DNA from: Malacoraja senta
Lineage: Eukaryota
Direction: 5' to 3'
DNA length: 64,000 nt
Assembly (NCBI GenBank): GCA_038087875.1
Contig: CM075992.1
Coordinates: 5,582,001-5,646,000, forward strand
In this document: positions 1,248-49,523 of the stretch, in pieces
Position numbering within the stretch: the stretch's first letter is position 1
Layout of the letters: every line of letters starts with the position of its first letter
The notes under the pieces: model-generated
What the model saw: the letters and a program-made list of their open reading frames with translations, nothing else
Told to the model about the DNA's origin: nothing
Databases searched by the model: none
Translations under genes and position numbers: made by a program

Positions 1248-4200
1248 ACTCCTTTTTTTCATCTGTGGTTCTTTGAGGTTTGTTTTCAAAGGGCTATCCC
1301 AATTCAGATATGGATCTGCCAAGTCACACGAATACACAAGCCTGCGTAAATCTGATCCACAACACTGTTTGATCCAATAAGATCCAACAGCAAAACATAG
1401 CTGAGCACAAGGAACAGAGGATTAAAATATGCTCCCGATAACCTGAAAAGCAAACCAAAAGACTTTTCAATATGAAAGCTTGCACAATTGCACAATTAAT
1501 TGATCAATAATATTCACAGACAATAGTGTGAATAAAGCAAACAGACCTAGAGAAACTCAGTGGCTTCAGCTGCAGTGGGTAACCCTGTGTTTAAGATAGG
1601 TTTGATTCAGCTGAACCTACGTAGAGTTTCACAACAGCTTGTGGGAGAGAGAAGTCAGGTAGAGCAGAGAGGCAAAGAAAGGTAACAGCGGGGAATAGGG
1701 TTGAGTGGACATTGGGGAGATATGTAGAAGAAAGTATGGGAAAGGGGGGGGGAAAGGAAGAGTATTTTTAGGAAGGGGGATGTTTCTAGAAGGCGGAGGA
1801 GTGTTTCCAGGGAGGGAGGGATGTTTGGAGGGAAAGAGGAATGTTTGCGGGAGAAGGTGGAAAGTGTTGGGGAAAGAGTGAAGGGACACGTTTGGAGAGG
1901 AAGGATGAAATGGGAAAGTATAGAGTGTCATGGATGGGGGGGGGGTGTTGGTTGAAGAGCGGATGGACAGGGAGTGTTTGGGGCGGTGCAGCTATGAGGG
2001 AGTGAAGGGGTGCAATGGATGAAGAGCGGGTGTTTGAAGGTTGCCAAGTGGAGGGGGAGTGTTTGGAGGGAGAGGATGTTGGGAGAAAGGATGTTAGACT
2101 GTATTGGGATGCAGAGAGGATGGGGATGGGGGTGGAGAGGAAGTGATGGGAGAAGCGGGGATGGAGGAAGGTTGGAGGTGGGATGTTTGGAGGGAGAGCA
2201 TGCTGGGGTGGAGGTATATTTAGAGGGTGAGAGCATTGGGGCAGGGGGGTGATTGGAGGCAGGAGATGTTAGTGGTGGATGTGGAGTGCATGGATGGAGA
2301 TGGCGGTGCAGCTGCAAAGGGTGTTTGCAATGGAGAAGAATATCTTTTATGGGATGAGCATGTTAGAGATGGGTAGGACAGCGTTCGTAGGGAGAGGATG
2401 TTAAGGGGTTTGGAGGGAGACAGTGTTGGGGTTCAGGGGGTTTGTTTGTAGGCTGGATTTATGGAGGGTGGAGAAGGAGAACTTGGAGGGGCTATTGGGA
2501 GCAGATGGGGAGAGTTTGCAGGAGCTACCGGCATTCAAGGGGAAGAGTTTGCAAGGGCTATTCGGGGTGGAGCGGGAGGATTTGTAGGGTGGCGGTATTG
2601 GAGGTGGAGGGGGAGTGTTTGGAGGGAACGAGTGTTGGGAGTGGAGTGCCTGGAGGGAGGAGGTGCTGGGGTAGACGTGTTTGTGGAGAGGGGATGCAAG
2701 GGGAGGAAGAGTTTGGAGGCCGGGGGCAGTAGGGGAGAGTTTGGATGGAGGGGACGTTGGGGGCGGAGGAGGTGTTGTGGGGGGAGGGCGAGTTGGGTGC
2801 GGAGGGGGAGTATTCGGAGGGATGGGGTGGAGGGGGTGAGTGTGGGGGGAGAGGTTGTTGGGGATCGATGGTAAGAGTTTGGAGAGAGAGTGGGGTGGGT
2901 GTGGACGGGGAGGGTTTGGGGAGACGGGGTGCAGTGGGAGCGGTTTCAGGCAGAAATAGTTGGGGATGGAAGGGGTGAGTTTCGAGGGGGGCGGTGTTGG
3001 GGGCAGAGGGGGTGCATATGGTGGGATGGGGTACTGGCAGTGGAGGGGGAGGGTTTGCTGTGTCGGAGGGAGGAATTTGGGAAGGAGAGCGGGGTTGGAC
3101 GGCGAGTACAGTTTGCAGACACACGCTGTTTGCACAGAGGAGATTAGTTGGTTGGAAAAGGTAGTTTGGATGGGTGGAGATGTCGGGAGGGTGTGTGAAG
3201 GGAGGGGATTGGAACAAAGCATGAATGTTTGGTGGGTGGGTTTGGGGGGAAGGAGTGTTGGAGGGGGAGGTGGAGTGTATGGAGGGAGGGTCTGATCGGG
3301 GTGAAGTGGAATGGGGGTTTGAAGGGGGAGAGTGAATGGGGTCTGTTTGGAGGGAGGGGGTGTTGGGGGTGGAGGGGGGGTGTTTGGTGGAAGGGGTAGC
3401 TGGGAGTGTAAAGGGGTGTTTGGAGGGAGAGGGTATTGGGAATGGAGGGGGAGCATTGGGAGGGAGGGTGTGTTGGGTGCGGAGTGGAATTGTTTGAAGG
3501 GAGGGTGAGTTGGGGGTGGAGGGGGCGTTTTCGGAGGGAGGGGATGCTGGGAGTCGAGGGGGAGCATTTTGAGAGATGGGCTACAGGGACTGGGAGAGGA
3601 GTAATTGGAGAAAGTAGTTGGGGATGCAAGGGGTATGATTGTAGGGTTGGGCTGGAGGGAGGGGGAGTGTTTAGAGGGAGGTAGAGGAGAATTGTTTGAA
3701 GTGATGACGTGCTGAGGATAGAGAAGGAGCGCTATCGTGGAGGGGGAATTTTGTTCTGATGGTGGGGGAGTTTTGGAGCATGGCAGTTTGGAGGAAAGGC
3801 AGGTCGAAGTGGTGGGTAGCATTTGCGGATAGGGGTTGTTTGGATGAAGAGCGCTGTTTGGATAGATGAAGACATTGGGCGAATGGGATCGGAAGGAAGC
3901 CTGAACATTCGGAGGGAGCGAGAACTGGGGCGACGGGAGGCGATTCGGAGAGAGCTGGTGATGGGGTGGAGAGGGTGAGTTGGGGTACGAGGCAGAGTGA
4001 TAGGTGGGAATAGGCGTCGGGGATGGAGAACGTGTACCCAGAGGGAGGCCATGTTGGAGGGAGAGGGGACAAGGGACGAGAGGGCATTGCAGCGGGATTG
4101 CAGGGAGAGGGGACAAGTTGGGGCCGTAGGGGAAATGTTTTGAGGGAGGGGGCGTTGGGAGTGGAGGTGGAGCATCTGGAGGGAAGGGCTTTGGGGGTGG

Positions 4201-5222
4201 AGGTGGAGAGGTTGGAGGGAGGGCGCTGGGCATTGAGGTGAGCTGTTTGAAGTGAAACGGGTTGGGTGCAGTTGGGGAGTGTTCGGACAGAGGGGATTTG
4301 GGGCTGCGAGGAGAGTGCTTGGACGAAGACGGTGGTCGGGTGGCGGGGATGAGTTTGGAGGGAGGGGTAATGCTCGGAGGGAGCGAAAGGGGGAAGCTGT
4401 TATGTTTGGAGAGGCGGGGTTTAGGGAGAGAGCGTGGGTGGGGGGAGAGTGGTTTGAGGGAGGGGAGTGTTGAGGGAGTGAGTGGGGGGGCAGGGGGTGT
4501 TGTGGAAGAAGATGGTGCTTGGAAGGAAGTCGTCTGGTAGGTGGAGGGGCAGTATTTGGAAGGAGGGGGTATTGGAGGCGGAGGGGGAGTAATCGGAGGG
4601 AGGGGGTGTTTGGGGAGGAGGGCAAGTGTTTGGAGAGAGGGGATGTGGGTGGGGGAGCAGTGTCTTGAGGAAGGGGTTTGTGGTTGGAGAGAAAGGGTTT
4701 GGAAGGAGACAATGTCAGGGGTGGAGTTGGTGTTTTTGGAGGGTGAGGATTTACAGGGTGGATTTAGATTGTTTGTTGTGAGGTGGTACTGAGGGTGAGG
4801 GTTGGGGGTGAAGGAGGAGTGTCTGGAGGAAGGGGGAGTTGGGGGTGGAGGTGGGGTGTTTGGAGGGAATGGGTGGTGGAGAGGCAGTGAGGAGTCAAGG
4901 GAGAGGATGTCGAGTGAGAAGATGTTGGGAGTGGATGCGGAGTGTGTGAAGGGAGGGGTTTCAGGGAGCGGGGGGTAAGTGTCTTGGCGGAAGGGTTGCT
5001 TGATAGAGAGGGAGAGTTTTGGGGGGAATGTTGGGGATGGAGTATTTTGAGGGAAGGATTGCTCAGAGTCGGGAGGCTGCATTTGGAGAGGAGGGAAAAT
5101 GAGAGTGACAGGGGAGAGTGCGGAGAGTGAGGCTGCTGGAGGTGAAGTAGTAGTATTTGGAGGGATGGCTTGTTCTGGGTGGAAGGGAAGTACTTTGAGA
5201 GAGGAGTGTTGGGAATACAGTA

Positions 5223-5276
5223 GGGGTGGAAGATTGCAACCTTCACGTGGTCCGCCCTGTTTCGACGAATGCAATC
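5223..5276 (+). ncRNA. Minimal HDV-like (CPEB3-type) self-cleaving ribozyme, intact, at the 5' end of a short retroelement
   Basis: P1 GGGGUGG(5223-29)/CCGCCCU(5252-58) with G1-U wobble; P2 GAUUGCA(5232-38)/UGCAAUC(5270-76); P3 ACC/GGU; L3 UUCACGU; P1.1 C5244-G5259; P4 reduced to U-UUCG-A; J4/2 C5266-G-A-A. Confidence 0.85.
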
Positions 5277-5356
5277 AACCTGTGCACAATCAAATAAGAT
5301 CAAACAGAACAAGTTGTCCTACAACTTTAGGCTGTGCACGCCATACGCAAGAAGAA
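5223..5356 (+). mobile_element. Ribozyme-headed SINE-like element, copy 1, (AAG)n tail
   Basis: Near-identical to 42275-42417 with the same 5' start; ends in caagaagaa. Confidence 0.85.
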
Positions 5357-7430
5357 ATGCAGGGCAGTGTTAGAGGGGAGGGGTACTGGAGATGGTGAGG
5401 AGTATTTGGGGGAAAAGGGCGTTGGACAGGAATTTTTGGGTGGGCCACAGGGTTAAGTGTGCTGGTGATGAGAAATAATGGTGACTTTGGAGGCAGAGGT
5501 TGTTGGAGGTGTGTTTGGAGAGGGGGACTGGGATAGGAGAGCTGAAGGGGATGGAATGGAGGTGTTTTGAGGGAGCGTTGGAAAGGAAGGATGGATGGGA
5601 GGTGTTTGGAAGAACAGTGTGGCAGTGAGGCAATGTTTGAGGATGGAAGGAGTGATTTGAGGGTGAGGTACAAGAGTTTTTTAGTGCACGGGAAGAATGT
5701 TTTGTGGAAGAGGAAGTTTGATTGAAGCTACATGGTAGAGTGTCAGTGTGGAAACTTGTGGAAGAGGTGCTGTAGCTAATTGTGGAGAGTTCGGCGTGGG
5801 ACAGGCCTGAGGACCCAACAGTTGAGGGGTTAGAAATGATGACAGCCGGGGAAAAAAACTGTTGTAATTGTGTGAGAGCTGCGGAAGGACATTGGTTCGC
5901 AGAAAGAGCTGGTGAATTGGGGGGAGGAGAGGGGAGGGGAGAGGAGAGTCAGGAATCTGCTGGGAAAGGAATGAGGAGCCGTTAGATGGAATGTACAGAC
6001 ATGCTGGTGAAATGTCTCTGTGAGGGTAGGAATGATTGGGAAGGGTTTCCGTAGACGATTGACTTTGCAAGGTAGCTGATACGAGAAGATGCCTTGGAGT
6101 AATATGTAGAATCAGAGTTATCTGGAAAAGATAATGGGATTGGTGACGCAGATACTACAGATCTGGAAAAGAAATAAAACAAGCTGCTAGAGATACTCAG
6201 CAAGTGAGAGGAAAAAATTGTCAACAAGCGGATTGTGCGTGCTCAAATGACAGGCAAGGAAGAAATTGAAGAAATGTAATTAGGGTTCAGTGATGCTGTT
6301 GGGGGAGGTAAAATGCACTGAGGGTAGGAGATGAATTAGAGTAATGGGGAGGGTTTGGGGGGGAGGAGGGAATAGCAGTGGAAAATTTGGTGGAAATGGA
6401 TCAGTAAAAGGGGATGGGATTGTTGTAGTGGGAAGGGGTAAGAGGGGAGAGGATGGGATCAATGTGGCAGGGGGGTTATTGTGGTGGCAAGGGGTAGGAG
6501 ACGGAGGAAGGCATGGATGTGGTGGGAAGGGAGGATGGGCTTGACTTGGGAAAAGAGGTATGAGGAAGACAGGATAGGGTTGATGTAATGGGAAGGATGG
6601 AAGGCTGCAGTTGATGTGGGGGGAAGGAGGGATTGATTTGGAGAGGGGGGAGGATGGGGTAGGAGGATGAGGGGGGAGGATTGTTACGATGGTAAAGGAT
6701 TGATGTGGGTGAGAGGGAGGAAGGAGGGTGGGGTTAATGTGGAAGGCAGGGTAGGGATAATGTGGGGAGGGGGAACGAGTAAGAGGATGGGGTAAAAGGA
6801 GAAGGTGAGGGATAGCTGTGCAGGGAAGGGGTTGATCTGGGTGGGATGCAGGGAGGATGGGGTTGTTGCAGTAGGAAAGGGTAGGAGGAGGAGGGGAGAT
6901 TGTCGATGGGAGGAAGGGGTTGTTGTGGGGGAGGATGGGGTTGATGTGAAAAGCAGGATGGGGTTGATGTAGGAGGAAGGGATATGAGGAAGTGGAGATT
7001 GTCGATGGGAGGATGAGTCGATGTCGAGGGTTGGAGGGGTTGATGTGAAAGGCAGGATGGGGTTGATGTCGTATGAAGGGGTAGGAGGAGGAATTGGAGA
7101 TTGTCGATGGGATGAAGGGGTTGAAGTCGATGGAAGGGTGGGGTTGAAGTCGATGAGGTTGATGCAGTATGAAGGGATATGAGGGTGGAAGGGGAGATTG
7201 TCGATGAGACGGTGGGGTTGAGGTCGACGAGAGGGCGGGGTTGATGTCGATCAAAGATCCTGTCGCGGAGCTGTAGGATTTTTGATGTCGATGAGGGTGA
7301 TGCAGTATGAATGGATATGAGGAGGAAGGAGAGATTGTCGATGGGAGGGAGGGAGGGCGGGTGGGGTTGTCGTGAGGGACGGGGATCGGAAGTGATGGGT
7401 TGGTCGGAGAGTGGCGGTGGCGGTGGCTGT

Positions 7431-7470
<40 letters not shown>

Positions 7471-7489
7471 AGAGGGGTTCCGCAGTTAC

Positions 7490-7615
7490 CGCCTCCCCCG
7501 GCGTCACTCCGGGACTCTCACGTCTCCCTCTCCCGCGATCTTTACCATTTTTTCATTCCAGGAGCCGCTCCACCCGCACCGGAAGCCGCTGCCAGCGCCA
7601 CTTCCGTTTCCAGGG
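7490..7615 (-). promoter_or_regulatory. Probable promoter and non-coding first exon of the DR1-like gene
   Basis: CpG-rich; ETS/GABP-type motifs CCGGAAG 7579-7585 and CACTTCCG 7599-7606; candidate minus-strand donors GCG|GTAACT at 7489 and ATG|GTAAAG near 7545. The link to the DR1 exon is inferred, not shown. Confidence 0.5.
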
Positions 7616-8079
7616 GTAACCGATTTTCAAAAACTAAATTCACCTTAAAACATTTTTTTCCAGTAATTACCACAATTCCTCTTCTATTTGCTCCTTTATT
7701 AAATTTCCATGTCTGGTCCGACGCTATTATATTTATATTTTATGAAAACAATGCTTTCTCGCATTGCATTCTGGGGGTTGTAGTTTTGACCTGCTGTGGT
7801 GTTTAAATTCAAAACTTATTACTAACGAACCTTATTTATCAAAACCAACACCTGCTGAGAACTCAACACAAATTTAGAACAAAGCGTGTAAGTGGATCTA
7901 GCGCCAGTGTAGTTATCAAAAGCTTCTGTTTGCTTTCCATAATTATTCCTAAATTTCCATAATCTTTTCCAATAAGAACACTTCTTGTGATGTAATTTTA
8001 TTTGTATTTATTACGTTTTTTTCCAAAATAAACAGTTTCTATTTGTTTTTTAGCTTTTTTTTTTAAACCATTAAATGAG

Positions 8080-8294: not shown

Positions 8295-49523
<41,229 letters not shown>

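Follow-up and report, generated by a model that had tools for sequence, protein, structure and literature searches.

Short retroposons that keep the two ends of a LINE and little else have been described repeatedly, and the closest to the element discussed here are NARTc with its partner L1Tc and RIME with ingi. These are short, non-coding sequences that share the first ∼77 and last ∼30 nt with their LINE, carry an HDV-like ribozyme that has a single-pair P1.1 and cuts just before position +1, and have a partner in the Ingi/Vingi group (PMC3185411, PMC3383444). The NARTc ribozyme cleaves at +1 (PMC3185411), and the first 77 nt of L1Tc and NARTc serve at once as ribozyme and as Pol II promoter (PMC3383444). 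The R2 SIDEs of Drosophila similarly join a 5′ ribozyme to a LINE 3′ end and are moved in trans (PMC3414825, PMC6765202), and Vingi-1_EE derivatives, SINE2-1_ACar and SINE2-1_AMi arose by internal deletion with several independent joints in the clade to which we assign the partner of our element (PMC5786205, PMC4494074). Given NARTc, RIME, the R2 SIDEs and the Vingi-1_EE derivatives, the concept of a ribozyme-headed mini-retroposon is already in print. A separate literature describes minimal HDV-like and theta ribozymes, nested double pseudoknots of ∼50–60 nt that lack P4, nearly 99 per cent of which lie in gut phages, many beside tRNA genes; the eukaryotes covered by that survey are human, mouse and protists only (PMC10879173).

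The element compared with these systems here lies in a 64,000-nt stretch of the Malacoraja senta genome (hereafter the window). It is 137 nt long where NARTc is 263 nt, ends in (AAG)n rather than poly-A, is present in thousands of copies in an animal rather than in trypanosomes, and begins with a predicted ribozyme of 54 nt without P4; cleavage and promoter activity are known for NARTc, whereas the ribozyme of this element is predicted from sequence. Unlike the R2 SIDEs, which are rare, site-specific in 28S rDNA and dependent on a large R2 ribozyme and an RLE enzyme, it is dispersed and APE-type, and unlike the Vingi-1_EE derivatives, SINE2-1_ACar and SINE2-1_AMi it has no tRNA head. The adjacent phage tRNA gene typical of theta ribozymes is absent, with no tRNA at 4700–5900 and a host genome of 1.94 Gb, and here the minimal fold is the head of an animal retroelement. 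We hold with good confidence that the element is non-autonomous and bipartite and arose from a Vingi-type LINE by internal deletion, and the account proposed below has the same standing. What is new is the predicted minimal ribozyme in an animal retroelement, a predicted helix between the UTRs in three lineages, and sister heads that pass the CPEB3 model. In the literature covered, into which few subscription papers and patents fell, we found neither a Vingi ribozyme nor this mini-element family described. Patent texts are said to place an HDV fold in the 5′ UTR of Vingi-1_Acar.

The predicted head and its copies

Two copies of the element had been reported in the initial annotation, at 5223 and 42275, with (AAG)n ends and a TSD around the second, and all of these were located as claimed. 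The copies are 93 per cent identical across 137 columns. No exact TSD was found at the flanks of copy 1; that of copy 2 is exact over 12–13 bp. Segmental duplication as the source of the copies is ruled out by their differing flanks and TSDs. The features of the two copies and of the head are as follows.

5223..5356, plus strand: copy 1 of the mini-element, 134 nt, with a 3-nt deletion after position 59
5223..5276, plus strand: predicted minimal HDV-like ribozyme, 54 nt, with predicted cleavage 5′ of G5223
5223..5229, plus strand: P1 5′ strand, pairing with 5252–5258, G5223–U5258 being a wobble
5232..5238, plus strand: P2 5′ strand, pairing with 5270–5276
5239..5251, plus strand: P3 (5239–5241 with 5249–5251) and L3 (5242–5248)
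5252..5258, plus strand: P1 3′ strand; 5254 is G or A by subfamily, giving U-G or U-A, so that the pair is kept
5259..5265, plus strand: G5259 and the 7-nt linker in place of P4, with the single P1.1 pair expected from known HDV-like folds
5266..5269, plus strand: J4/2 with the predicted catalytic C5266; 5267 is G, U or C by lineage
5270..5276, plus strand: P2 3′ strand
5349..5356, plus strand: (AAG)n tail of copy 1
42275..42418, plus strand: copy 2, full length, its ribozyme decayed, the predicted catalytic C at 42318 kept
42263..42274, plus strand: left TSD of copy 2, an exact repeat
42417..42428, plus strand: right TSD of copy 2, an exact repeat that overlaps the end of the tail

Copy 1 has a P1 of 7 bp that opens with G-U, a P2 of 7 bp, a P3 of 3 bp, an L3 of UUCACGU and a J4/2 of C5266-G-A-A. 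The earlier statement that the first 54 nt satisfy every element of the HDV/CPEB3 fold thus stands for the pairings of copy 1 but not for copy 2, which is changed at the first base of L3 (42294), by a mismatch in P1 (42305) and in the loop (42315). A strict descriptor of the fold matches the window once, at 5223; none of the 20,000 sequences made by dinucleotide shuffling of the head passes it, nor does anything in 20 shuffled windows, and relaxing it adds copy 2 as the sole further match in the window. Curated covariance models, which had been put forward as a check, gave the head no backing: no Rfam family matches it at the gathering threshold or at E ≤ 10 when the window and 5150–5420 are scanned. 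Nested-only folding programs, which cannot model the double pseudoknot, assign the P1–P3 pairs of copy 1 probabilities of at most 0.06 in the natural G-rich flank, and this flank may slow copy 1.

The 7-nt linker holds at most one pair and occurs in two lineages, while three others have 26–31 nt with a true P4, as in the sister families treated below. The description of this segment as P4 cut to a UUCG cap is right as to a 7-nt linker without a true P4; the letters are not special, as a second mini-family (M2) has its own minimal HDV-like head with different letters in the same 7-nt linker. The autonomous family-1 LINE has the short linker too, which means that the origin of the mini-element involved no trimming of it. 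Among seven heads from five lineages, changes on both sides are seen at 10 of the 17 P1, P2 and P3 pairs, the covariation that had been asked of these helices, while L3, the G after P1 and the C-N-A-A motif are constant; the +1 G-U, L3 and the catalytic C are kept in every lineage examined. The L3 C and G5259, the putative P1.1 pair, are invariant in 8/8 aligned heads, an invariance that leaves no covariation readable. Covariation in P1 and P3 scores 0.59, compared with 0.17 in shuffles (0/500 as high; slid controls at most 0.12), to be read in the knowledge that the heads were picked after inspection and that related sequences can outscore shuffles, and the count of two-sided pairs alone is less extreme (34/500 shuffles).

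Across the 1.94-Gb genome that was searched, a 27-nt motif from the 3′ part of the element has 2,448 exact matches, a lower bound for copy number, and its reversed control has none. The first motif matches along contig 1 were taken as a sample of 30 copies, which, having been chosen by their 3′ part only, is unbiased for the 5′ end. All but one (29/30) reach base 1–3, base 1 being G in 21/30, with G1 lacking in 9/30, and an exact TSD of 8–13 bp flanks 23/30. The predicted cleavage site coincides with the 5′ end of the family as it had been said to do, and the random 5′ ends of a mere 3′ LINE fragment are not what is seen; that candidate is rejected by the 29/30 copies with a 5′ end together with a head shared with the LINE. 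Mean divergence from the majority letter is 3.5 per cent, and 9/30 copies retain a strictly intact predicted ribozyme. With three copies left out, non-CpG change amounts to 1.8 per cent in the ribozyme core and 2.8 per cent in the body (p = 0.17), rates alike enough that the copies appear to decay neutrally, with no visible selection; CpG sites decay some five to ten times faster than others, as in vertebrates, and the repeats nearby look like those known from skates and rays.

The sequence is also present in 20 of the 23 listed public runs, from 12 studies, and these runs comprise six coded organisms, one unlabelled run and one metagenome; the runs were seen as contigs, with the RNA label guessed and X16 flagged as probably DNA. 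In four other runs loose ends pile up at 5223 and 5356 with unrelated flanks, and the two variants met most often in the head there, 5254 G>A and 5267 G>T, both keep the fold.

Several side observations concern the surroundings of the copies. Copy 1 sits inside a G-rich low-complexity tract (window 2000–8000, GC skew up to 0.77) whose minus strand has long open frames rich in Pro, Ser and Thr, among them one of 957 codons (2401–5274), for which a mucin-like exon and a decayed satellite are both readings. The window from 8500 to 63100 is dense in short repeats of other families, dozens of 70–250-bp copies in both orientations, one of which starts ∼45 bp past copy 2. Elsewhere in the genome, L078:1278–1540 and L005 show clustered and head-to-head copies of the element, several of them within 3 kb, some inverted or partly duplicated.

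By analogy with the described HDV-like ribozymes, it is highly probable that the predicted head is active in self-cleavage. There is some reason to think that it might do more than this, as Pr77 is both promoter and ribozyme in the L1Tc/NARTc sister clade (PMC3383444), and dispersed insertion into unrelated flanks favors elements that carry a promoter. If the first 55–75 nt were likewise an internal Pol II promoter, the element would not be promoterless, and its 5′ uniformity would come partly from transcription start, which is compatible with the ribozyme explanation; we regard this as a possibility of the lesser kind, given that the fold explains every conserved position among the five lineages. 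It is a good deal more doubtful that the P4-less head folds yet no longer cuts usefully, serving as a 5′ shield or protein-binding site, with copies full length mainly because 137 nt are short. A linker of only 7 nt, the lack of selection visible among copies, and the protection of R2 template 5′ ends by HDV folds (PMC13708176) would all suit such a head. Every lineage examined nevertheless retains the catalytic C, L3 and +1 G-U, the linker is equally short in the autonomous LINE, natural P4-less variants have been described as ribozymes (PMC10879173), and a common start in unrelated flanks still requires a defined RNA end.

The partner LINE and its clade

The element has no ORF and carries a LINE 3′ end and tail. 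It divides into three parts.

5223..5296, plus strand: part derived from the LINE 5′ end, 87 per cent identical to locus L081 and 90 per cent to L082
5297..5318, plus strand: middle 22 nt, by sequence without a match in the LINE ends
5319..5356, plus strand: part derived from the LINE 3′ end, comprising the last ORF codons, the stop at 5328–5330, the 18-nt 3′ UTR and the tail

The 3′ part was followed by a search with the last 17 nt joined to non-element sequence, and among the 100 of 1,563 overlapping matches that were listed there are other families with the same end. Eight loci picked from these matches (L061–L068) have only the last 38 nt in common with the element, continue upstream into an RT ORF, and are identical to it at 37–38 of 38 nt in seven cases and 36/38 in the eighth (one alignment being 37 nt long); the stop codon of the partner ORF falls inside these common 38 nt. 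Five of the eight stop matching within 145–470 nt and three share at least 1.1 kb, a graded loss of match that, on these alignments, is the usual 5′ truncation of LINEs. A near-complete LINE copy was found by searching the genome with the best protein homologue. This family-1 insertion of ∼2.8 kb, whose ends were read directly and whose middle is mostly covered by protein and genome matches, is bounded by an 11-bp TSD: at its head (L081) the same ribozyme is followed by ∼107 nt of UTR and then the endonuclease frame, and its tail (L087) carries the common 38 nt. An autonomous LINE sharing both ends, which the initial annotation had proposed to look for, thus exists, the head match extending over 67–76 nt at 87–90 per cent (L081 and L082).

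No stop-free family-1 copy occurs among the 55 matches listed, and locus L094 is a 5′-truncated copy without a head. With a head-side pattern that carried an exclusion, most of the 100 matches listed, out of 433, are deletion variants of the mini-element, and a pattern from the middle of subfamily C has one match in the genome, which is not a LINE. At L070, L073 and L074 other head-to-tail joints are found, clean fusions of which one has no filler, and their differences imply that the deletion arose more than once. In the element itself the 22 nt at the joint look like two short duplications, one direct and one inverted. As read from these alignments, the element is LINE nt 1–75, 22 rearranged nt and the last 38 nt of the LINE. 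The shared head, the 38-nt tail and the TSDs uphold the earlier view of a non-autonomous retroposon moved in trans by a LINE; the term SINE-like suits its size, tail and TSDs but not its origin, which is an internal deletion of a LINE whose own head it keeps. As a separate observation, at L082 and L083 a family-1 LINE 5′ end including the ribozyme is inverted against its ORF, resembling twin-priming inversions.

The proteins nearest to the partner are APE-RT proteins of ∼1,000 aa without RNase H, the next nearest (26–36 per cent identity) bear RNase H, and the partner, like 74 of 77 homologues of 940–1,060 aa, has a Cys/His motif at its C terminus. The single-ORF APE-RT architecture is read from the nearest whole homologues, the family-1 copies being broken. 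A compact single ORF with APE and RT and no RNase H is what is described for Vingi (PMC13708176), and the RNase-H-bearing neighbors fit Vingi as sister to Ingi. Compared by eye, the head of a sister family matches nt 2–74 of Vingi-2_Gav in the supplement of PMC5786205, and the resembling heads are those of paralogous loci (L085, L092 and L101–L103); the 5223 head has the fold, L3 and J4/2 alone in common with Vingi-2_Gav. On these sequence comparisons it is very likely that the partner LINE belongs to the Vingi clade. PDB, the ESM Atlas and source names gave no Vingi or RTE label for the relatives of the partner.

The initial annotation had instead proposed a partner of the RTE type. RTE elements are also single-ORF APE-RT elements without RNase H, yet the clade is not known to have a C-terminal Cys/His domain, which the partner and nearly all of its homologues possess. 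RTE elements form bipartite derivatives and have 5′ ribozymes (PMC5786205), but the next-nearest proteins carry RNase H and the paralogous head matches a named Vingi. The Vingi-type architecture, the Cys/His motif and the likeness of the sister head to Vingi-2_Gav speak against the RTE assignment, which we consider quite improbable. Least credible of all is an ordinary Pol III SINE whose head resembles a ribozyme by chance: size, tail and TSDs would suit a SINE, and runs of four T are absent from the main subfamily, but no A or B box was found in the element within one mismatch, in agreement with what was first reported, no tRNA head is present, the head is the LINE's own 5′ end and chance yielded the fold in none of the shuffles. 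Rfam, tRNA and box scans and the shared LINE head likewise rule out a Pol III SINE with a tRNA, 5S or 7SL head. As to the Vingi partner, the protein named P0005, from the eel Synaphobranchus kaupii, is 90 per cent identical to the family-1 query over half of its length, and P0017 is a metagenome protein that reads through what looks like the same 3′ UTR; from these sequences horizontal transfer of the family-1 Vingi is possible.

Sister families, the UTR helix and the CPEB3 ribozyme

At least two more LINE families of the same type are present in the genome, ∼40 and 48 per cent identical to the query. In all sister LINE families and in the second mini-family M2, an HDV-like head forms the extreme 5′ end. 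M2 (L095–L099) has 779 matches within one mismatch, and four of five copies examined are full length, at 130–166 nt with 11–12-bp TSDs and AAG tails; its P1 is 6 bp in nearly all of the 63 one-mismatch matches listed. The 40-per-cent family includes open frames near 1,000 aa without stops (e.g. C8:934716–937556 and C4:35486717–35489629), which makes it younger than the family that made the element. In the family-2 head at L086:207–260 (minus strand) a 26-nt unit running from part of P1 to P3 is repeated four times at the 5′ junction. The 3′ part of SINE2-1_AMi, labelled unknown in the supplement of PMC5786205, terminates in a short hairpin with a 7-nt spacer, resembling the family-2 Vingi 3′ end, and is probably Vingi-derived, as judged by eye.

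Both ends of the element also appear able to pair with one another.

5281..5288, plus strand: 5′ strand of the predicted UTR helix, pairing with 5333–5340, with a putative function

The helix has 8 bp in copy 1 and 10 bp in copy 2; the family-1 LINE has 7–8 bp, family 2 has 9 bp and one M2 copy has 12 bp. It is built from different sequences in the three lineages at like offsets, 4–7 nt after P2 and 6–9 nt before the tail, and pairings across families reach 4–5 bp only. Shuffles match it at rates of 0–1 in 3,000 in the best cases and 0.004–0.015 for the family-1 LINE. It is weak or broken in the single copies L087, L095, L097 and L098 and no such helix was seen in family 3; its family-1 version includes a palindrome of six bases. 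Modelled in this way, the pairing is a probable recognition or cyclisation helix.

The mammalian CPEB3 ribozyme (RF00622), a single conserved intronic copy in contrast to the dispersed heads described here, has the same L3 and J4/2 as the element (PMC8233481). The 5223 head itself has no match to RF00622, its P1, P2 and P3 letters being other and P4 lacking. The sister Vingi heads, however, score 37–64 bits on this mammalian model against a cut-off of 35. From 59 candidates scored, 39 of the 51 matches listed reach the cut-off, the best at 64 bits, and 4 of the top eleven lie directly before LINE ORFs. The passing loci include L085:206–289, L092:37–120, L091 and L100–L105 (family 2 and other copies); the M2 copies picked by the model are a rarer variant. 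The older third family (L101–L103) has a CPEB3-like P4 stem, and its member L102 is ∼255 nt long, with an A-run end, an 8-bp TSD and weak Vingi C-terminal fragments (E 0.004).

Aligned by eye, Vingi-2_Gav matches 38 of the 40 RF00622 consensus bases that precede P4 and 14/14 of those that follow it, and the agreement covers J1/2 and P2, where the letters are not fixed by the fold. It seems likely from this comparison that the CPEB3 ribozyme and the Vingi heads are homologous, and the sister heads that pass the model suggest that the mammalian ribozyme is a domesticated Vingi head. A literature search found no paper tying the origin of the CPEB3 ribozyme to Vingi. The wider proposition, that HDV-like heads ranging from 54 nt without P4 to full P4 occur throughout the Vingi clade, that the CPEB3 ribozyme was domesticated from the 5′ end of a Vingi element and that the UTR helix is a possible recognition structure for the Vingi protein, is one that we favor, although less firmly than the bipartite origin of the element.

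Proposed cycle and significance

These observations would be consistent with the following cycle, in which the cleavage, transcription and trans steps are drawn from HDV-like chemistry, L1Tc/NARTc and R2. A copy would be transcribed by read-through or from its own head, and the 54-nt HDV-like ribozyme would fold and cut 5′ of G1, leaving a unit RNA with a fixed, structured 5′ end. The short helix between the UTRs may then place both ends beside the (AAG)n tail, so that a Vingi APE-RT protein acting in trans could nick the target and reverse transcribe the RNA by target priming, an insertion that would leave a TSD of 8–13 bp. Inserted copies would then decay without selection. We infer mobilisation in trans from the shared ends and similar TSD lengths, and the family may be old enough for its partner to be dead now.

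With a predicted ribozyme, one closing helix and a tail in ∼137 nt and thousands of copies, the element is an unusually stripped case. If this reading is true, minimal P4-less HDV-like ribozymes, reported almost wholly as phage-borne, extend to an animal retroelement. The mini-elements also constitute a natural deletion series for what the Vingi protein requires in trans, and recognition through the UTR helix, if true, would explain the recurrence of two-ended Vingi mini-elements and define a minimal template of ∼90–140 nt, in a clade under development for gene insertion (PMC13708176). The Vingi heads that pass RF00622 make the origin of the CPEB3 ribozyme directly testable and, if the domestication is true, these heads would be the missing non-mammalian outgroups for CPEB3.
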